In this document: positions 4,582-27,887 of the stretch, in pieces
How the letters are laid out: each line of letters starts with the position of its first letter
How positions within the stretch are numbered: the stretch's first letter is position 1
Source of the DNA: a virus
DNA length: 37,180 bases
IMG/VR virus record: IMGVR_UViG_3300031920_000103
Coordinates: 74,694 to 111,873 of that record
Strand: one strand, 5' to 3'
Notes under the pieces: model-generated
What the model was told of the DNA's origin: nothing
What the model saw: only the letters and a program-made list of their open reading frames with translations
The model's database searches: none
Program-made: the position numbers and the translations under genes

Positions 4582-5073
4582 CTAAGCTGCGATCGGCTCA
4601 AAGAAATCGTAGGTGAGAGTCACCATCTCGATCACTTTTTCGTCGGAGTCGTTGTCCCATTCGCCGGCGACAAACTTTTGCGGCCAAGCGTTGTAGAGAC
4701 GCCAACGTCGCAACGTTGTGCCGTCGCGGTCTTGTTGGATCACGTCGAGCGTGCGCTTGTACAAAGGATCGGGAAGACCCGCGCCTTGCCCCGCCGGGAC
4801 CGCGCCCGCGCCAAAGCTCGCAGCGTTTGCTACGTCGTTGAACCAAGCGTACATGTCGAGATCTTCGGTAGCGCCGCGCTCAAGCGTTACGTCTGTGAAC
4901 GTCAAGCGGCCGGGGCTCTTGTGCGGGATAAGGGCACCGCCCTCGCTGTATTCGATTTTAGCGGCCTCGACAGAAAGCTCTGACATTTTGTTGAAACCGG
5001 CCGACTGAATGCCGTCGATCTCAACTATGAATTTGAACTTATCGTGAAAGCTGCGGGGTTGTCCTAGGGTCAT
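4582..5073 (-). CDS. Tail tube protein, T4 gp19 / Afp1-5-like
   Basis: [22 protein letters not shown]...[16 protein letters not shown]...W.LYNAWP.K...W......IE...L.Y family pattern; TAAGGA RBS upstream. Confidence 0.92.
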
Positions 5074-5098
5074 TGATCATTCCTTACGAGGCAAGCTC

Positions 5099-5132: not shown

Positions 5133-5639
5133 ATGGCATGTCTTTGTGGTTGCGGTGAAACACCTAGTGCGGATACTCGCTCGTTTGTGGCGGGGCATTG
5201 GAACAGACCGTGCAGATCACCGGATGAGTTCGCGGTGTGGAAGCCGGCGCGGGATGCGCTTAGGCTGGAAAATGGCAGAGCGCGCAGTCGTGTGAATGCC
5301 GCGCAGCGTCGCAAGGATTTCCCGGACGACGCTACTGAGCGCCGCAGGATGCAACTGTGGACACGATACCGCATCACGCCAGACGAGTACAAAGCCATGT
5401 TGGCGTCGCAAGGGGGGGTGTGCGCCGTATGCGGGACAGACGATCCGAAGTCGGGTAAAGGCGGATTCGTAGTTGACCACGCGCACGAATCCGGCCCGTA
5501 CAATGGTGGGCGTACTGGTGACATTCGTGGTGCTTTGTGTGGGCGCTGTAACATGGCGTTGGGGCAGTTAGGTCATGATGTCGAGGTACTCAGAGCCGCT
5601 ATCGTGTACTTGAGCAAAGACCCGGCGATTAAACGCTAG
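5133..5639 (+). CDS. Free-standing endonuclease VII-family (His-Me finger) homing endonuclease, antisense to the tail operon
   Basis: N-terminal CLCGCG..F..GH motif; Y.IT..EY..ML.SQGGVCAVC...VDHAH...IRGALCGRCNMALG is the EndoVII signature. Start placed at ATG 5133. Confidence 0.88.
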   Translation: MACLCGCGETPSADTRSFVAGHWNRPCRSPDEFAVWKPARDALRLENGRARSRVNAAQRRKDFPDDATERRRMQLWTRYRITPDEYKAMLASQGGVCAVCGTDDPKSGKGGFVVDHAHESGPYNGGRTGDIRGALCGRCNMALGQLGHDVEVLRAAIVYLSKDPAIKR

Positions 5640-7852
5640 GATGCTAGCTCCTCTTCAAGTGCTCGCGTGTCTTGGCTCACTTTCAAAATCACAAAGTCGG
5701 TTGGCTTGGCAGTCGCGAGACCGATTTTGATAACCATCTGACGGGCGAAGATAACTGACGGCGGGTTTACCGCCTTCGAGGTATCGACAAAGAACGCGGA
5801 CGCTGGATCGTTTGACGCGAAAGCGTTGTTGCGCATCTGGTTAAGCAGGAACAACGTAACCGTGCGGTTGGCAATTGCTCGCGTCGCTTCGGTGTTCGGT
5901 TGGTGCTTTAGAAATTGCAGACCGCGCTTTAGCGATTGCTCAATGAAGATCACGCCGCGCCGCTCTGGGATGCTCGGGAAGTTCCCGCCCTCTTTGAGCG
6001 TCTTGGTTCCATCGAGGTAAATCGGTAGACCCGGCAACGTGGTGATCGGGTTCACCAACTTGGGGTAAAGCAGATCTAGCTTCGCCTCGTCTAGCGCCTC
6101 AAGCGTCTCGAATCCGAGCACGCCAAACAGGCGACCCGTCTCGATACCAGCGGGGGCACGGTAGACGCCGCCCGGAGATGAGCCGTCAGTGCGCGCGTAC
6201 GCACCGGCGATATGCCCGGAGGGCGGTACGACAATGTTTGCGTCGGTCCCGAACACAGCTTTGCTCGGGTTAAGGATCTCAATTCGAGGCCAGTAGATTG
6301 CGCCGAACTCGGATATGTTGACGAGTTGCGCGGTACTCGTCACGTAGGTATCCATCTCGGCAGCGCTCTGATCTTCCGGGGGATCGAGAACCGCAAACAC
6401 TGCTTTGTCGCGTGTGCTTTCGCAGTACGTGATCATAGCGTTGTGCACAGCGGAGGTTGCGCGACCCGGTACCAACAAAAGTGTCAGGTCTTGGATCGTG
6501 TCGAGTGCGCGGATGCCGGTGTCGCCTGCGTCGCTGCCCACAAAATCGGTGTCGTCGAGCGCGGCTAAACCGTCGTTGCCGCCAACCATAAAGCCAGACG
6601 TTGCGACTGCGGGGCGTGGGTCGGTTGCTGTGTTGAGTTGGTCAACAACAGAAACGTAGATCGATGCGCCGTTGATGATTGTCTCAACGTAACGAGTCGC
6701 CGTTGCAACCATGCTCAGGTTCGGGAACTGCTCGACAATCAAACCGTCGTCAACAACGTTTATGTTGAACTCGTCAGCGGAACCGGAGGTCGGAGCCGTG
6801 CGCTGAATCTTGATCGTGTCTGCGTAGCTTCCGTCAGTCTTGCCGCTAAAGATTAGCGTGGGAGCCGCCGCGCCGGTATCGCCCGAGTGCAGCGCGTTGT
6901 CGAAACCAAGCTCGTCGTCAGCGGTAGATATCGCTTCGGCTTGGATCGAGTTTGCGGGGCCGGCTGCACTTGTCGAGTTGATCTGCACTGCGCCGCCAAC
7001 GTCAGTCACCAGAGTGTTGGCAACGTCAGCCTCGACTACCGCTTTGATCTCCGCAACCGTAACCGCAGAGATGTCGGCAACGTCACCGGTGCCGAATACC
7101 GGTGTGATCGATAAGCCGAGTGCTACTAGCGCGGTGCCGCCCGTAAACGATGTTTGCGAGCCGGTGCCCTTCGAGTCGGAGGTTACGCGCACAGCGCCGG
7201 CTGACACGTCAGCATTCGCGCCAACGATTTCGGCGTTGATAACTGCGGCAACTTCGAGAGCCGTAGCCGCGCCGATCGAGACAAACTCTGCGGTGTTGAA
7301 AACGATCGTTTGGACTGCGCCGCCGTCAACCGCGACCGTTAGATCTTGCAGGTCGGCTAGTGCGAAAGGCCCGGCATTAGTGCCGGTGTCGATCGCTGCG
7401 GCTGCGTCGAAAGTAGCAACAAGAGATCCGCCGCCGTCGACTGACATCGATAGCGTATCGGCGGGGCTCATCGCAAACGGCGCAAGAGTTGTTCCTAGTA
7501 GGATGCCAACCGAGGGCGAGCCGGTGGCGGTGTTGAGAGTCACAGCGCCCGGCGCTGATGTCTTCGTGCCTGGTACGGTGATATTCGTGTAGTGGACGGT
7601 ACGCACGATGTACGCTTGTGATCCGCCGTTCTCAAAGAACCCTTGCACTGCGAGGGTTAGATCAGACGCGGAGGTGTACCCGCCGAACACGCGCACGTAT
7701 TCCTCGAAAGAAGTTACGAACGTTGCAACACCAAGCGGGCCTCGCTCTGTGATACCGACGAAACCGGCAACGGCAGTCGGGACGGATGCGATCGTGCGTA
7801 CGCTAGGCTCCTCCTCAACGACGACGACTTTAGAACTTAGTAGTTGAGCCAT
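5636..7852 (-). CDS. Contractile tail sheath protein with a large inserted domain
   Basis: TAVAGFVGITERGP, SFEEYVRVFGG, GFFENGG, FAVLDPP, AIYWP, PPSGHIAGAYARTD, RAPAG, ERR..IFIEQSL and IGLATAKP motifs. Confidence 0.95.
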   Translation of the reverse strand: MAQLLSSKVVVVEEEPSVRTIASVPTAVAGFVGITERGPLGVATFVTSFEEYVRVFGGYTSASDLTLAVQGFFENGGSQAYIVRTVHYTNITVPGTKTSAPGAVTLNTATGSPSVGILLGTTLAPFAMSPADTLSMSVDGGGSLVATFDAAAAIDTGTNAGPFALADLQDLTVAVDGGAVQTIVFNTAEFVSIGAATALEVAAVINAEIVGANADVSAGAVRVTSDSKGTGSQTSFTGGTALVALGLSITPVFGTGDVADISAVTVAEIKAVVEADVANTLVTDVGGAVQINSTSAAGPANSIQAEAISTADDELGFDNALHSGDTGAAAPTLIFSGKTDGSYADTIKIQRTAPTSGSADEFNINVVDDGLIVEQFPNLSMVATATRYVETIINGASIYVSVVDQLNTATDPRPAVATSGFMVGGNDGLAALDDTDFVGSDAGDTGIRALDTIQDLTLLLVPGRATSAVHNAMITYCESTRDKAVFAVLDPPEDQSAAEMDTYVTSTAQLVNISEFGAIYWPRIEILNPSKAVFGTDANIVVPPSGHIAGAYARTDGSSPGGVYRAPAGIETGRLFGVLGFETLEALDEAKLDLLYPKLVNPITTLPGLPIYLDGTKTLKEGGNFPSIPERRGVIFIEQSLKRGLQFLKHQPNTEATRAIANRTVTLFLLNQMRNNAFASNDPASAFFVDTSKAVNPPSVIFARQMVIKIGLATAKPTDFVILKVSQDTRALEEELAS

Positions 7853-17886: not shown

Positions 17887-17995
17887 GATCATAGAAATAA
17901 CACGTCGCGTTTGAAATATCACGCGGTTTGCGTTTCTGATGTTGCCAAGGATAACTCCACAAGTAGATGGGGAGTCAATGCCCGAAACGCAAAGT

Positions 17996-18304
17996 CTAGT
18001 GCCCGTCAGTCGTCTGCCACGTCATGCGCTTGTCGGGCTCCCACGAAACTCCGTCGAGTTCGTAGCGCAAATACTCGGCTAAGTGATCGATAATTCTCTC
18101 GATACCCCAACTCAGGTCGCCGCGCAGTTGCTTAAAAAGACGCTCACAGATCTGAAATCTGCGCTTTACCTCGTCGGTCGTCATGGTGCTCCCGTCGATC
18201 GCAAAGCTCGTCGTGATCGCCATCTCGAAACCTAGCGTCACCTTGCCAACGTTGGCGGGGCTGCCAACCAACTCTTTGAATGATCCCGTAAATTCCATCG
18301 CCAT
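17996..18304 (-). CDS. Hypothetical protein in the head module
   Basis: 102 aa ORF with its own putative leaderless promoter. Confidence 0.7.
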   Translation of the reverse strand: MAMEFTGSFKELVGSPANVGKVTLGFEMAITTSFAIDGSTMTTDEVKRRFQICERLFKQLRGDLSWGIERIIDHLAEYLRYELDGVSWEPDKRMTWQTTDGH

Positions 18305-18310
18305 AGCGGC

Positions 18311-18339
18311 ACTCTAAGGCGGGTGCGGGTTTGTGGCAA
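18311..18339 (-). promoter_or_regulatory. Putative leaderless promoter
   Basis: TTGCCA-17 bp-TAGAGT, 6 nt before ATG 18304. Confidence 0.6.
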
Positions 18340-18342
18340 GAC

Positions 18343-18990
18343 TTAGACAACCGGGACAACCGCTTGTTGTGCCCGGTGCGCGGTGTCCTCATCCGGGTAC
18401 CGGCCTATGTAGACCTTCTTGCCGTCTTTGCGGCCCCACGCCTCCCAAGCGCCATTCTTGAAACGCACGCCGGGGTACTTGTTGCGCTTGGGTTTGATCT
18501 TTGCCTCTGCGACTTCCGCGTAGTTGTTGCGCCGCTTGGGAAAGTTGAGCGGTGCTGTTGGGTGGTGCTTGCACACGTACTCGTCGCGGGCAAGCGCGGC
18601 GAGTCGGTCGGTAGGCCACGAGCCTAGGTGCACTTGCTTATTGCCGTAGTTGACGTACGCGCTGAAGTTCCCCCCGTCGATCATACGCACGCCGCGAAAA
18701 CCGAGTGCAGCCTTTGTCGGTTTGGTTTGGTTGTGCGGGTTTTCGGATGCGGTAACGATCCGAAGATTCGAGCGGCGGTTGTCGAGCTTGTCGCCGTTGA
18801 TATGGTCGACGTGCTTTGTTGCGGGTGAGCCCATGATCCAGCGGTGCAGATAGACTCGGTGCCCGCCTATGTCTGCCGCCGCGTACCCGTTCTGTGTGTT
18901 CCAGCGCTTCTCCAAGAGCAACAGGGAGCTGAACACGTCTGCGTCTACGAGGGTGAACCCGCGATTTAGCGGCCATTTGTTTAGTGCCAT
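18343..18990 (-). CDS. Free-standing HNH homing endonuclease with AP2-like DNA-binding domains
   Basis: YLHRWIM...VDHINGDKLDNRRSNLR.VT..EN.HN (HNH), then FRGV...HLG.W....AALARD...LNFP and KYPGV...YIGRY..E..AH.A (two AP2-like units). Confidence 0.93.
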   Translation of the reverse strand: MALNKWPLNRGFTLVDADVFSSLLLLEKRWNTQNGYAAADIGGHRVYLHRWIMGSPATKHVDHINGDKLDNRRSNLRIVTASENPHNQTKPTKAALGFRGVRMIDGGNFSAYVNYGNKQVHLGSWPTDRLAALARDEYVCKHHPTAPLNFPKRRNNYAEVAEAKIKPKRNKYPGVRFKNGAWEAWGRKDGKKVYIGRYPDEDTAHRAQQAVVPVV

Positions 18991-18996
18991 GCCGTA

Positions 18997-19025
18997 GCGC
19001 TAGCACGTGCGCAACACACGGTCAA
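18997..19025 (-). promoter_or_regulatory. Putative leaderless promoter of the HNH-AP2 gene
   Basis: TTGACC-17 bp-TAGCGC with an extended TG, 6 nt before ATG 18990. Confidence 0.5.
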
Positions 19026-19039
19026 GGTGCGAATACGCA

Positions 19040-20125
19040 CTAAACTACGGGTACAATGGTTGAGCGGCACATTCCGTGAAGTGGGGGCATTTGGATCCCG
19101 GCCGCCTCAAGTTGTGAATTGTTCAGCCCTTTCGAGTAATCGCCAACCCGATCTTTTCCGCCTAGGCCCGGTTTGTCTATCTGCGCGACGCGTTGCTTGT
19201 CGCCTTTGTCGTCGCGGTAAACGATCACCTTGTTGCCGTCGTCGTCGGTGGAATCCCAAGACCACGGGGCCTCGGTCTTTACTTCTTTGGGCTCGGGTAG
19301 CGCATCGAGTTGGTCGTATTTGTTGAGCCCGGATTTTGTCGTGAACTCGCGCCCGTGCATGTAGCGGCAAATCTCGGTTGTGCGCTCATCAAGCACAGCG
19401 TCGAAAGTGTAGGTCTCGATCCCCGCCTCATCGTACGAGGCTAGCTGACCGTAAACTCGCGATCGGTTGGTGTGCGCAGCGGCAACAACCGTCCAATAAC
19501 TTTTGTTCCGCCTTATCGCGCCGCCGCCAATTTCCCGTCTAAGATTTTTTCCGATGTCGTCGCGGCTGAGTCCGTTGTTTAGCCCATCGCCAACAATGCG
19601 CCGCGCCTTGACAGAGTAGGCGTCAATGCGCCGCCCGTATTCGTCGGTGACAAAGTTTGTTTGCGACGTAACAAGTTTGTCGACGATCGCTGCGTCGCGT
19701 TCGTTGAACGCCAACCCGATGTCTAGCACGAGCCGCCGCGAGGTTGAAACCTTAGCGCCGTTTACTACTTTCTCGCCGGTGGCTTGCAGCGTCGTCGATA
19801 TCTTTGGGAGCGTCTGCGCGGCAATCGGTGCGAGCGATTCACTCGACGCTAGGATCACCTCATCCATTTGCGCGACCGTCATGTTTGGCCAATCAACGTC
19901 GAGTGCGTCTAGTGCCTCGCGCAATGCCTTTGCCTCGACACCCGCGTTTGTGCGGCGCATCGAGTTAGATAGCGTTGTGACGATCTGTTTGTAGTCGTCT
20001 GGATCGAGAGGGTCGAGTGCTTTGGCTAGGTGCACGCTGTAGTAGTTTTCGATCAGATCGTCGGCTGCGTCTGCGGCCTCGCGCAGCAATCCAAGATCTT
20101 CGAGCACTGCGTCAGTAGTGCACAC
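19040..20125 (-). CDS. Head morphogenesis / minor capsid protein (Mu F / SPP1 gp7 family)
   Basis: AVLDERTTEICRYMHG and PPLHGMCRSTI motifs; directly after the portal gene. Confidence 0.9.
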   Translation of the reverse strand: MCTTDAVLEDLGLLREAADAADDLIENYYSVHLAKALDPLDPDDYKQIVTTLSNSMRRTNAGVEAKALREALDALDVDWPNMTVAQMDEVILASSESLAPIAAQTLPKISTTLQATGEKVVNGAKVSTSRRLVLDIGLAFNERDAAIVDKLVTSQTNFVTDEYGRRIDAYSVKARRIVGDGLNNGLSRDDIGKNLRREIGGGAIRRNKSYWTVVAAAHTNRSRVYGQLASYDEAGIETYTFDAVLDERTTEICRYMHGREFTTKSGLNKYDQLDALPEPKEVKTEAPWSWDSTDDDGNKVIVYRDDKGDKQRVAQIDKPGLGGKDRVGDYSKGLNNSQLEAAGIQMPPLHGMCRSTIVPVV

Positions 20126-25337: not shown

Positions 25338-27887
25338 CTACCTGACTAGCGCAAGTTTTGGTTTCGACTTGCCAAAGATGCGAACACCAACGCCATCCGA
25401 TCGACGCGAGTTGCGCCTAGCTCCCTCACGCGCCAACCACAACGACATAAGACGATCGCCCGTGTGCGCGTCGGGTTGATAGTAGAGCATTTCGGTGATC
25501 AGCTTTTCGACTTCCGGATCTAGCTTGCCGCCCTCGTTGGGTAGCACCCATTTGTCGTTTGCGAACTCGGCAGCAAGCGACTCGACCCCGAACTCAGGGT
25601 GTAGCTTGTTGCGCCCGGTTGTGAACGGTTGCACGGGTACTGCGCTTGTGTCGCGAGTAAACTGCAAAATGAAATCTTGCGCTGCGTTGTTCTCGACCGT
25701 GACGATCGAGTTGTACCGCTCGTGCGTGTCTATGATGCGATCGACGATCTCGGGTCCAGACCAACGCCCGGCCTCTACGCAAAGCAGCCGCCGATCTTGG
25801 TTGGGCATAACCATGATAGTCGAGATCGCCGTGTAGTCAGCGGCAGCGTGCTTTTGCACCGCCATGTCGACCCCAGAAAAACACGCATACCCGGAGTCGC
25901 CGCCAAGCCTTGTCACCGACGCGTGATACGCCGCCATCTCTTCGGCTACGATGTCCTCGGTCAGTCGGTGGATAACCGGCCACGAGTCGCCGGCCGATAG
26001 CGCCTTGTCGATGTACTCACGTTTAAATCGTGCGTCGCTCTCGTCGCGTGCCTCGCACATCATTGTGCGCGCGAATTCCAAAGGCCCACGCTCGATCCGC
26101 TCTTGCGCGATACGGGCCAGCGGCCAACGGTCTAGCCACGTCGATTCGCCCTCTACGTTTAGCACCGGGAATCTGTGCGACTGGTAAAGCGCGTTTGCCT
26201 CAAGTCGATGGTACAGATCTTCGGGGTGCCACGGTGTGCCGATCGCAATGACTGTCGCGTCTTTTGTGAGTCGAGATGCAACGGTCGACCGGTACCAATC
26301 GAAAAGGTCTTGCCGTGCGCGCGGCGTTTGGCAGTTTTCAAAATCGAGAACATCGTCGAGGATCAGGTGATCGATACGGGCACCAACGACCGCGCCGTGC
26401 ACGCCGAACGCCTGCAAGCTCGGATCTTTCGACACGTTTGTGCGCTCGATCGAGATAGCGTTTGCGCGCCATAGTTCGCCCGGCTTTAGGTGCGGGAACA
26501 CAAGCCGCAACTCTTTAGATTCTGCGATGTACTTACCCACCGCGAGGATGATTTTAGACGCCTGCTCGCGGGTGTTTGATATGACCGCGATCCGCATCTT
26601 CGGGTTTCGCCCGAGCAACCAAAGCGTGCGGCCTATGCAGATCTGCGAGGTGTTGTGCGTGACCGTGAAATCGTCCAATAAGAAACGCCCGTCCCCGTCT
26701 AGCGTGAATCCCGCGTACTTGCCCCGCCCAACAGGCTCAACCTTGAATCCCGTACGCAAAGGGTTTTTACCGGTGCCCGATTTCTCGGTGGTTGGGCACT
26801 TCCGCGCAATACGGATTGGTATGCGGGAGAAGTCCCCCTGCATTCGCACACGCCAGTAGATGCCATAACCCGCAACAGTGCGCGGTTTGATCGACGTAGA
26901 CAGACCGAGAGAACGCGCTATGCGTACAATCGCACGTGCCCAATCCTCGCGTTTCTGCGTGATCTCTGCGCCGCTATTTCCCGCCTCGCCGTCTGTGTCT
27001 ATGTAGCCGGCGAGGAAATTTGCGCGTGTGTCCCACGGTGCTGTTAGCAGAGCTTGCGGAATCGCAATATCATGCCCAACAAGATCGCGCATAGCGTCTA
27101 GCAAAGGGTTGTTTCTACCGGGTGCACTCGACGAAATGCGGTACGTCGGGCACTTGTCGGGATTGGTGCTCGTCGTAAATTCCAGCCCCCAAGAGATAGC
27201 GGTAGCGCGAACGCAATCCGCTATCTCTGCGTCTGGCTTAGACACTGCGACCCCGCGTAGTTTGTCGTTCTCCACGCGCTTAGTGCCATCGCCGAACCAA
27301 ACGCCTAGGAAGTACGGGTCGACGCTTAGCGTAGCCTCGCCGTCAAAGCACTCTACGTGGGATCGGAAAAGCTTGTATAGATGCTTCCAGTATCCGGATT
27401 TTTTTAGGTACTCATCGAGCGGGATATCTATGATCTCACCCGTAGTTGTGTGCACCAGCGTGAGCACGTGCACAGAGTTACACTCCCACGCGTCCCCCTT
27501 GTTCGGCACGATCCGAAACATCTCGTCTGTGCCGCTTGTCGTGCTTAGAACTGTGCGTGGCCCACCCGGCCCCATAACGCGATCACCAGCGCTCACGTCT
27601 TTGGCTAATATGGTCGATCCGTTTGCACGCAAGATCGCGGTGTCTGGTGCTAGGCATTTCCCGGCCTCGGTGTGCGACCACAACACGAGACGCTTGCTAC
27701 CCTCGCACAGTTGGTGCCAGCGTTCGTGGATCGGTGCCTGCTCGATCGGCTTGCCGGTTTCCTCGTCTTTCAGCACGAGTTCGCAGAACTCGTTTACGTC
27801 CTCGCGTGCGATACGAGCGCGCATTGCTAGGTGCGTTTTCGATCGCTCTAGGATCTCCGCTAGAACCTCGTGCTCGGACTGAGACAT
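25338..27887 (-). CDS. terL: Terminase large subunit, intein-containing (849 aa precursor, ~514 aa spliced)
   Basis: Spliced Walker A HTEAGK/T; Walker B LILDDV; IGTPWHPEDLY; nuclease motifs GVDMA, ENNAAQ and GDRLMS. Confidence 0.93.
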   Translation of the reverse strand: MSQSEHEVLAEILERSKTHLAMRARIAREDVNEFCELVLKDEETGKPIEQAPIHERWHQLCEGSKRLVLWSHTEAGKCLAPDTAILRANGSTILAKDVSAGDRVMGPGGPRTVLSTTSGTDEMFRIVPNKGDAWECNSVHVLTLVHTTTGEIIDIPLDEYLKKSGYWKHLYKLFRSHVECFDGEATLSVDPYFLGVWFGDGTKRVENDKLRGVAVSKPDAEIADCVRATAISWGLEFTTSTNPDKCPTYRISSSAPGRNNPLLDAMRDLVGHDIAIPQALLTAPWDTRANFLAGYIDTDGEAGNSGAEITQKREDWARAIVRIARSLGLSTSIKPRTVAGYGIYWRVRMQGDFSRIPIRIARKCPTTEKSGTGKNPLRTGFKVEPVGRGKYAGFTLDGDGRFLLDDFTVTHNTSQICIGRTLWLLGRNPKMRIAVISNTREQASKIILAVGKYIAESKELRLVFPHLKPGELWRANAISIERTNVSKDPSLQAFGVHGAVVGARIDHLILDDVLDFENCQTPRARQDLFDWYRSTVASRLTKDATVIAIGTPWHPEDLYHRLEANALYQSHRFPVLNVEGESTWLDRWPLARIAQERIERGPLEFARTMMCEARDESDARFKREYIDKALSAGDSWPVIHRLTEDIVAEEMAAYHASVTRLGGDSGYACFSGVDMAVQKHAAADYTAISTIMVMPNQDRRLLCVEAGRWSGPEIVDRIIDTHERYNSIVTVENNAAQDFILQFTRDTSAVPVQPFTTGRNKLHPEFGVESLAAEFANDKWVLPNEGGKLDPEVEKLITEMLYYQPDAHTGDRLMSLWLAREGARRNSRRSDGVGVRIFGKSKPKLALVR
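26652..27656 (-). mobile_element. Intein (335 aa) with LAGLIDADG endonuclease, inserted in the terminase Walker A motif
   Basis: Begins CLAPDT, has block B CNSVHVL, LAGLIDADG blocks YFLGVWFGDG and FLAGYIDTDG, and ends FTVTHN followed by Thr. Confidence 0.95.

Follow-up and report, generated by a model that had tools for sequence, protein, structure and literature searches.

A five-codon gene end repeated at an HNH-AP2 homing endonuclease gene: a probable scar of homing in a phage head module

The Mu-F/HNH-AP2 locus

The final 37 kilobases (kb) of the 111,873-base-pair (bp) IMG/VR virus record IMGVR_UViG_3300031920_000103 (positions 74,694 to 111,873; 37,180 nucleotides (nt), hereafter the window) contain a gene for a head morphogenesis protein of the Mu-F family and, just behind it, a free-standing homing endonuclease gene of the HNH-AP2 type. 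The two genes end in almost the same five-residue peptide, and it is this repeated ending that we analyse here. The phage is myovirus-like and has all of its structural genes on the minus strand, namely those for an intein-bearing terminase, portal, Mu-F, protease/scaffold, capsid, sheath, tube and tape measure, with the portal gene directly upstream of Mu-F. Read along the minus strand, the features of the locus are as follows, in window coordinates.

19040-20125, minus strand: Mu-F / SPP1 gp7-type head morphogenesis gene, 361 amino acids; Pfam PF04233 (Phage_Mu_F), 32.4 bits, cut-off 29.6
19040-19057, minus strand: in-gene tail copy ATT GTA CCC GTA GTT TAG (IVPVV-stop), after ...HGMCRST; proposed part of the cassette
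19027-19040, minus strand: inverted repeat GTGCG-TATT-CGCAC, overlapping the TAG
18997-19026, minus strand: weak promoter-like CTTGAC-N18-TAGCGC, 6 nt ahead of the HNH ATG
18343-18990, minus strand: HNH-AP2 free-standing homing endonuclease gene, 215 amino acids, recognised by its Pfam domains and by orthologues at the same junction
18343-18360, minus strand: proposed displaced Mu-F tail copy GTT GTC CCG GTT GTC TAA (VVPVV-stop), after ...AQQA; in frame, and forming the last five codons and the stop of the HNH gene
18311-18339, minus strand: promoter-like TTGCCA-17-TAGAGT, directly after the displaced stop and ahead of the 102-residue gene
17996-18304, minus strand: conserved gene of 102 amino acids, whose homologues adjoin Mu-F in contigs L003 and L001 and follow another open reading frame (ORF) in L004

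The Mu-F TAG is separated by 49 bases from the start of the HNH-AP2 gene (18990), and 38 nt separate the end of that gene (18343) from the 102-residue gene. The two tail copies lie 697 nt apart around the HNH gene; they are identical at 12/18 nt and at 4/5 residues. A preliminary description of this DNA had reported Mu-F to end in IVPVV-TAG and the HNH-AP2 gene in VVPVV-TAA, and both sequences are confirmed. It had also stated that the last five codons all differ at the wobble base. This applies to four of the five sense codon pairs, which differ there and nowhere else (GTA/GTC, CCC/CCG, GTA/GTT and GTT/GTC); the first pair, ATT/GTT (Ile versus Val), differs instead at its first base, and the stops are TAG and TAA.

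The 215-residue protein matches HNH_3 (PF13392) with an E-value of 2e-10 (40.6 bits, cut-off 24.8), and the residues of the HNH catalytic core (H63, N75 and N84), together with their neighbours, are invariant across the six closest homologues. The match to AP2 (PF00847; E-value 1.4e-6) scores 28.9 bits, under the gathering score of 33.3; the precomputed Pfam annotation assigns AP2 to this protein and to many of its homologues. Because the AP2 match stops at residue 210, the VVPVV sequence, which makes up residues 211-215, lies outside the domain and can be regarded as an appendage.

The sequence of the locus is reproduced by an independent Logan assembly (L011; 7,490 bp; SRR1971621), which is identical across the entire region. 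Among cultured phages, a nucleotide search with the region gave zero matches, and a protein search found relatives of Mu-F only, all of them distant (at most 30% identity).

Rarity and family membership of the repeated ending

How often such a repeat might arise by chance was gauged over the whole 111,873-bp genome. For every ORF of at least 200 amino acids, the last four residues plus stop were sought in every frame of the 1500 nt that follow, and the null was built from opposite-strand, permuted and reversed tails. Only two ORFs gave a recurrence, Mu-F (VPVV) and the tail sheath gene (ELAS), where the null mean was 0.11 (P = 0.004). Both repeats lie at the far edge of a nuclease gene, just ahead of the next conserved gene. 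Taken singly, a four-residue match carries little weight; what counts is that there are two in one genome, both exactly at the far edge of a nuclease gene. Two more hits in shorter ORFs, LMFP and SFRR, were rejected, being antisense frames that belong to a repetitive fibre gene and to another real gene. The fibre-like gene (694 amino acids) lies beyond the window at genome positions 62107-64190 (L012:1107-3191, minus strand) and has long internal tandem repeats; spurious repeated ORF tails such as LMFP are what its antisense frames yield.

The next point concerns whose ending this is. The C-terminal HG.CRST motif of the window Mu-F is common to 119 homologues, which end five residues past the invariant CRST, typically in IVAEV, IVADV, ILPDI or IVPEV, and the family ending CRST-[IV][VLT][AP][DEV][VI]-stop occurs in 75/120 proteins. 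The exact variant found in the window is rare within the family (1/120). The HNH side looks quite different: a pentapeptide ending of the Mu-F type is present in 0/119 HNH homologues, in line with the expectation in the preliminary description that HNH-AP2 proteins elsewhere would be without VPVV. A conserved Phe aligns with V211, and the five closest HNH proteins (47-52% identity) run on for only 0-8 residues past it, their tails being FATDT, SRSG, FPV, FSDRSDAS and F. Given 75/120 on the Mu-F side and 0/119 on the HNH side, an ending of the VPVV type is typical of Mu-F and atypical for the nuclease.

Mobility of the HNH-AP2 gene

Orthologues of the HNH gene separate Mu-F from the small-gene homologue that follows it in other, distant phage lineages, represented by contigs L006, L007-9 and L010 and the P0126 contigs. 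The gene is present at this junction in five lineages, and all close HNH homologues occupy it. For the same pairs of genomes, identity is 44-52% for the HNH protein versus 30-36% for Mu-F. The gene is absent from the closest relatives, L003, L004 and L001 (the closest having 60-65% identity in Mu-F); in L003 the small gene comes directly after Mu-F, and in L001 the two genes overlap. Because its presence is patchy, its site is fixed and its conservation is higher than that of its flanks, the HNH-AP2 gene is, on this comparative evidence, a mobile homing element inserted between Mu-F and the 102-residue gene.

The same architecture at two other loci

The second repeat found in the genome-wide test lies between the tail sheath and tail tube genes of the same window, where the features are as follows.

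5636-7852, minus strand: tail sheath gene, ending GAG CTA GCA TCC TAG (ELAS-stop) at 5636-5650, the in-gene copy, read from the sequence
5133-5639, plus strand: inverted EndoVII-type nuclease gene between sheath and tube; Pfam PF02945, E-value 7.6e-20
5084-5098, minus strand: displaced sheath tail GAG CTT GCC TCG TAA (ELAS-stop), then GGA and the tube start, read from the sequence
4582-5073, minus strand: tail tube gene, the downstream neighbour; Pfam Phage_T4_gp19, E-value 4e-32

The stop of the EndoVII gene overlaps that of the sheath gene within CTAG, and the displaced GAG CTT GCC TCG TAA GGA stands seven bases before the tube ATG. Among relatives, sheath proteins end in EEELAS, EEEVASA or DEELAG. 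In L013, the nearest nuclease-free relative (tube 72% identical), the sheath ends in ...EEELAS, encoded up to GAA CTG GCC TCT TAA GG, which is followed by 13 bases and the tube ATG. The displaced copy matches this L013 sheath end at 14/17 nt, versus 11/17 for the in-gene copy. Because the empty allele in L013 reads alike, the displaced sheath copy, which keeps the same stop, the following GG and the position beside the tube start, represents the ancestral arrangement. Only one distant locus was found for relatives of the EndoVII gene.

An example outside this genome came from a blind scan of 80 viral contigs with HNH relatives, in which the tail of the upstream gene was sought at the far edge of the nuclease gene. 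The scan gave a single hit, in an unrelated phage contig (L057:2450-2990). Here a 552-residue helicase (ResIII, Helicase_C) ends TAT CCA GAA ATA CTA GGG TAT GAA TAC TAG (YPEILGYEY-stop), the GTG start of an HNH-AP2 gene overlaps the helicase TAG, and downstream of the nuclease gene there is a displaced copy, TAC CCG GAG ATT TTA GGC TAT GAA TAC TAA, which again encodes YPEILGYEY-stop. The displaced copy shares the final 24 nt of the nuclease ORF, read in a different frame, and contains the start codon of the next gene, whose ATG is overlapped by the nuclease stop, TGA. Two empty alleles are available for this locus (L180:3090-3140 and L181:2940-2990, with helicases 89% and 85% identical), and they read TAC CCG GAG ATT TTA AGC TAT GAA TAT TGA with the same overlapping start. 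The displaced copy in L057 is identical to the tail in L180 and L181 at 27/30 nt versus 21/30 for the in-gene copy, and over the first five tail codons it is spelled exactly as in the empty alleles, whereas the in-gene copy differs in all five. At the level of sequence comparison, L057 shows that the mechanism is real for HNH-AP2 nucleases in phages. The nuclease ORF tends to end inside the displaced tail.

For the Mu-F case, the duplication itself and the mobility of the HNH gene at its site are directly evident, and the same architecture is verified by empty alleles at these two other loci.

Proposed origin of the Mu-F duplication

We propose that the tail of the HNH protein is probably the scar of a homing-endonuclease cassette that replaced the end of Mu-F. 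The cassette would comprise 697 nt (18361-19057) and would have been inserted five codons before the natural end of Mu-F. At its head it would carry its own version of the last five Mu-F codons and stop (IVPVV-TAG), with which Mu-F stays complete, and then a short spacer and the HNH-AP2 gene. The latter would have arrived without a stop of its own and would run into the resident tail, VVPVV-TAA, which would have been pushed downstream while still abutting the promoter of the next gene. The empty allele expected from this proposal would read ...TGC CGC TCA ACC continuing directly into GTT GTC CCG GTT GTC TAA and then GTCTTGCC.

The cassette may have arrived as follows. The nuclease would cut a nuclease-free allele a few codons short of the stop, within or close to the conserved 3' end of Mu-F. 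On the gene side, the break would be repaired by homologous copying from the carrier genome, through its Mu-F end and the nuclease gene; on the other side, non-homologous or microhomology joining at or near the break would allow the last codons of the recipient to persist as the displaced copy. For the Mu-F locus we infer the cut site, the direction of transfer and which of the two copies is native from this scheme.

The silent differences between the copies would then reflect the divergence of donor and recipient, two phages in both of which selection maintains the same peptide. Repeats that are dissimilar would resist deletion and re-cutting and hence should be favoured. Over the three cases (Mu-F, sheath and L057), 13/18 comparable wobble positions differ. 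Because this is the level expected from saturated divergence, deliberate recoding of the tail, as put forward in the preliminary description, is not needed to account for the differences, nor do they demonstrate it.

Alternative explanations

A number of observations weigh against a replaced Mu-F end, and for the most part they are also those that favour coincidence, in which VVPVV would be the nuclease's own C-terminus and an ordinary homing endonuclease gene would follow an intact, native Mu-F. The repeat is just five codons long (four identical residues plus the Ile/Val pair), and the four or five matching residues are all common hydrophobic ones or proline. The background rate of such matches is not negligible: four-residue tail matches arose at ∼0.002 per ORF when 1,775 long ORFs, drawn from 178 fetched loci, served as a control. 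In the survey of these 178 loci, four-residue matches were at background (5 observed versus 3.4 expected), and L057 alone, with its nine residues, stands out. Some of the tail might have belonged to the nuclease all along, as V211 aligns with the conserved family Phe and one relative, P0124, ends in FPV. Many windows were looked at, which selects for chance finds.

Two further points of this kind come from relatives. Four sister HNH genes at the same junction end in EFPV, ASRSG, FSDRSDAS and ARDAF, and none has a Mu-F-like tail. Because these sister copies are without it, the tail duplication is specific to the window lineage, and the footprint is an occasional scar and not an obligatory mode of this HNH family. 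The empty Mu-F alleles, for their part, do not back the displaced copy. The preliminary description had envisaged that nuclease-free relatives would have Mu-F directly before the promoter of the 102-residue gene and ending in the codons of the displaced copy. The adjacency was indeed found, in L003 and L001, but the tails of the nearest nuclease-free relatives are IVPLV and IVPIV, slightly nearer the in-gene copy (14/18 nt) than the displaced one (10-12/18 nt). At this distance (61-65% identity), silent sites are near saturation throughout Mu-F in the comparison with L003 and L004, and these alleles favour neither copy clearly. A foreign 3' tract in Mu-F was also considered, and the codon-wise comparison with L003 and L004 was uninformative for the same reason. 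An exact-match search of viral contigs for the displaced tail plus downstream bases gave no match.

Against coincidence stand the genome-wide excess (P ∼0.004), with both hits at nuclease boundaries, the lack of a Mu-F-type tail in the 119 HNH homologues, the rarity of the Mu-F tail variant that is matched, and the verification of the same footprint at the sheath locus and in L057. We therefore consider coincidence unlikely, though by no means negligible.

It is also conceivable that the HNH gene picked up its Mu-F tail when it invaded another phage at an earlier time and carries it here as an inherited scar, following the native Mu-F end, so that the polarity of the two copies is reversed. 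This would fit the greater similarity of the in-gene IVPVV to the IVPLV and IVPIV of relatives noted above, and the HNH family evidently moves between very different phages. However, the downstream copy is the native one at both the sheath locus and L057, the displaced stop lies right against the promoter region of the conserved gene that follows, where a resident end would be expected, and no other HNH relative has the tail. An inherited scar is therefore rather improbable. It is very improbable indeed that VPVV is a C-terminal signal (for portal/procapsid docking or proteolysis) needed by both proteins, with the HNH protein associated with packaging and not selfish: the HNH gene does sit in the head module, and HNH proteins encoded beside terminase and portal genes aid DNA packaging in some phages (HK97 gp74 type), but this gene is patchy and missing from the closest relatives, an AP2 DNA-binding domain is typical of homing endonucleases, the orthologues are without the tail, and the sheath/EndoVII duplicate is not translated in any needed protein.

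Replacement of the Mu-F end by a cassette thus remains our preferred reading of the locus, and a broader form of it can be stated. Tail-swap might represent a strategy, general in scope and favoured by selection, through which free-standing nucleases of unrelated families (HNH-AP2, EndoVII and others) settle in the final codons of essential phage genes, each cassette consisting of a re-spelled gene end, a stop and a stopless nuclease ORF. Re-spelling would give self-immunity and protection from deletion, the length of the displaced tail would record the distance from cut site to gene end, and a nuclease ending in the displaced tail would preserve downstream expression. Such generality had been suggested from the first, and we regard the general form as possible but somewhat doubtful.

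Signals and stop codons around the nuclease gene

The two promoter-like sequences of the locus behave differently in a sigma-70 consensus scan. The site before the 102-residue gene is the sole sigma-70-type match within 17900-19200, and the stretch before the HNH gene fails the scan, so that the leaderless promoter earlier ascribed to the HNH gene is not upheld. The inverted repeat said to abut the -35 element of this promoter is present at 19027-19040; its folding is no better than that of shuffled sequence (z 0.02), and its significance is doubtful. The sequence CTTGMC-N18-TAGNGY ends 6 nt before the ATG of both the HNH gene (18997-19026) and the 102-residue gene (18311-18340), in each case on the minus strand, and the shared layout would give leaderless transcripts for the two genes; the motif was picked after seeing both sites and has one further match in the window (3 in all).

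A new TAG and an old TAA stop had been offered as a signature of the exchange. This is a weak criterion, since TAG ends 21/40 window genes. TAG is the favoured stop in this phage group, both in the window (those 21/40 genes being on the minus strand) and in L003 and L004 (7-8/11 genes), a preference which is unusual for bacteria-like genomes at 55-56% G+C.

Other elements in the head module

Several further selfish elements were encountered in these genomes. In the window, the terminase large-subunit gene (25338-27887, minus strand) contains an intein, with matches to Hom_end_hint, Hom_end and LAGLIDADG_3 over residues ∼78-347. A genome with this intein and with the HNH-AP2 and EndoVII genes is unusually rich in selfish nucleases. 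In L007 (1691-3988), one of the HNH-carrying lineages, Mu-F (765 amino acids) has an intein of its own, with matches to Hint, Vint and Intein_splicing, and in L010 (1-2890) the portal gene (1009 amino acids) has a faint LAGLIDADG match. The portal/Mu-F module appears to be a hotspot where selfish elements of several kinds settle.

A separate observation concerns the Mu-F genes of L003 and L004, which are the two closest relatives of the window gene and 60% identical to each other. In both, TGA replaces the invariant Cys codon of HG.CRST (L003:5484-5535 and L004:4790-4841; window equivalent 19016-19067, minus strand), and the frame past the TGA continues as RSTIVPLV or RSTIVPIV to the normal end. 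A hairpin begins 12-14 nt past the TGA, with three compensatory pair changes between the contigs, a conserved GUU loop and a bulged base. The window Mu-F has TGC at the Cys position and no such hairpin. The hairpin resembles a bacterial selenocysteine insertion sequence (SECIS) element, and from these sequence features Mu-F in L003 and L004 is a candidate phage-encoded selenoprotein. Rfam gave no match on L003 or L004, an exact-match search of viral contigs with a degenerate pattern for the TGA variant of Mu-F gave none, and no paper on natural phage selenoproteins was found in the open-access literature. In L004 (4817-5086) the gap between Mu-F and the small gene contains an unrelated ORF of 83 amino acids, which is in frame across the Mu-F TGA stop, and read-through would fuse the two.

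Significance and comparison with known systems

If the proposed origin is true, phage homing endonucleases can reside within the coding ends of essential structural genes, with neither intron nor intein, by bringing along a few replacement codons. Such a habit would account for some of the odd, short repeats at C-termini in phage annotations and for nuclease tails that look fused there. It would also provide a sequence-only way of locating the target of a nuclease and its approximate cut site, and would mark the limits of recent gene exchange among phages that have diverged.

Prophages and islands that integrate at the 3' ends of genes (tRNA genes, or icd in the case of e14 and phage 21) likewise carry a diverged replacement end and displace the original one. 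Their integration relies on site-specific recombinases and identical core sites in place of repair triggered by a nuclease, and these elements are far larger.

Among free-standing phage endonucleases, intronless homing is known for SegF, SegG, SegB and MobE of T4 (PMC2988022). As in those systems, a free-standing nuclease gene here lies between conserved genes; its product would presumably cleave the nuclease-free allele nearby, and repair of the break would spread the gene along with flanking markers. The classical T4 cases are intergenic and have no duplicated gene end; here, in contrast, the insertion point would be within coding sequence, and the element would supply the missing codons.

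The HNH-AP2 family is known from phages, cyanobacteria and protists, with ICP1 gp59 and gp209 among its members (PMC10448857). The window protein resembles these in having HNH_3 at its N-terminus and a candidate AP2 domain at its C-terminus, and in being encoded beside essential phage genes; it differs in that the last AP2 domain of its sub-family is short and under the Pfam cut-off. A term search of PMC10448857 found no mention of duplication of target-gene ends. In the open-access literature searched we found no description of tail duplication by homing endonucleases in phages, intergenic intronless homing and gene splitting being described instead.

The closest counterpart in arrangement is provided by the gene hybrids formed by mORFs in fungal mitochondria, which involve atp6 in Allomyces macrogynus, atp6, atp9, cox2 and nad3 in Glomus sp., atp9 in Rhizopus and cox2 in Mortierella (PMC3630166). 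In these hybrids the inserted C-termini share 64-81% identity with the native ones in DNA and ∼91-100% in protein; the native C-terminus has been displaced, and the endonuclease ORF is in phase in some cases (PMC3630166). The present loci resemble them in that an endonuclease ORF lies close to a conserved gene's 3' end, with a C-terminus copy of foreign origin and diverged DNA, and with a native copy (at Mu-F a presumed one) displaced downstream. The differences are that the host is a tailed phage and not an organelle, that the nucleases are of the HNH-AP2 and EndoVII types and not LAGLIDADG or GIY-YIG enzymes, and that the replaced tails are of 4-9 codons instead of tens of codons, one cassette also being inverted with respect to its target gene. 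If our reading is correct, the mitochondrial mechanism is extended to tailed phages and to two further nuclease families, the present case contributing two very short examples from a single genome together with a clean one of nine codons for which empty alleles are available. The arrangement matches the known mitochondrial mORF kind and is not new in kind.

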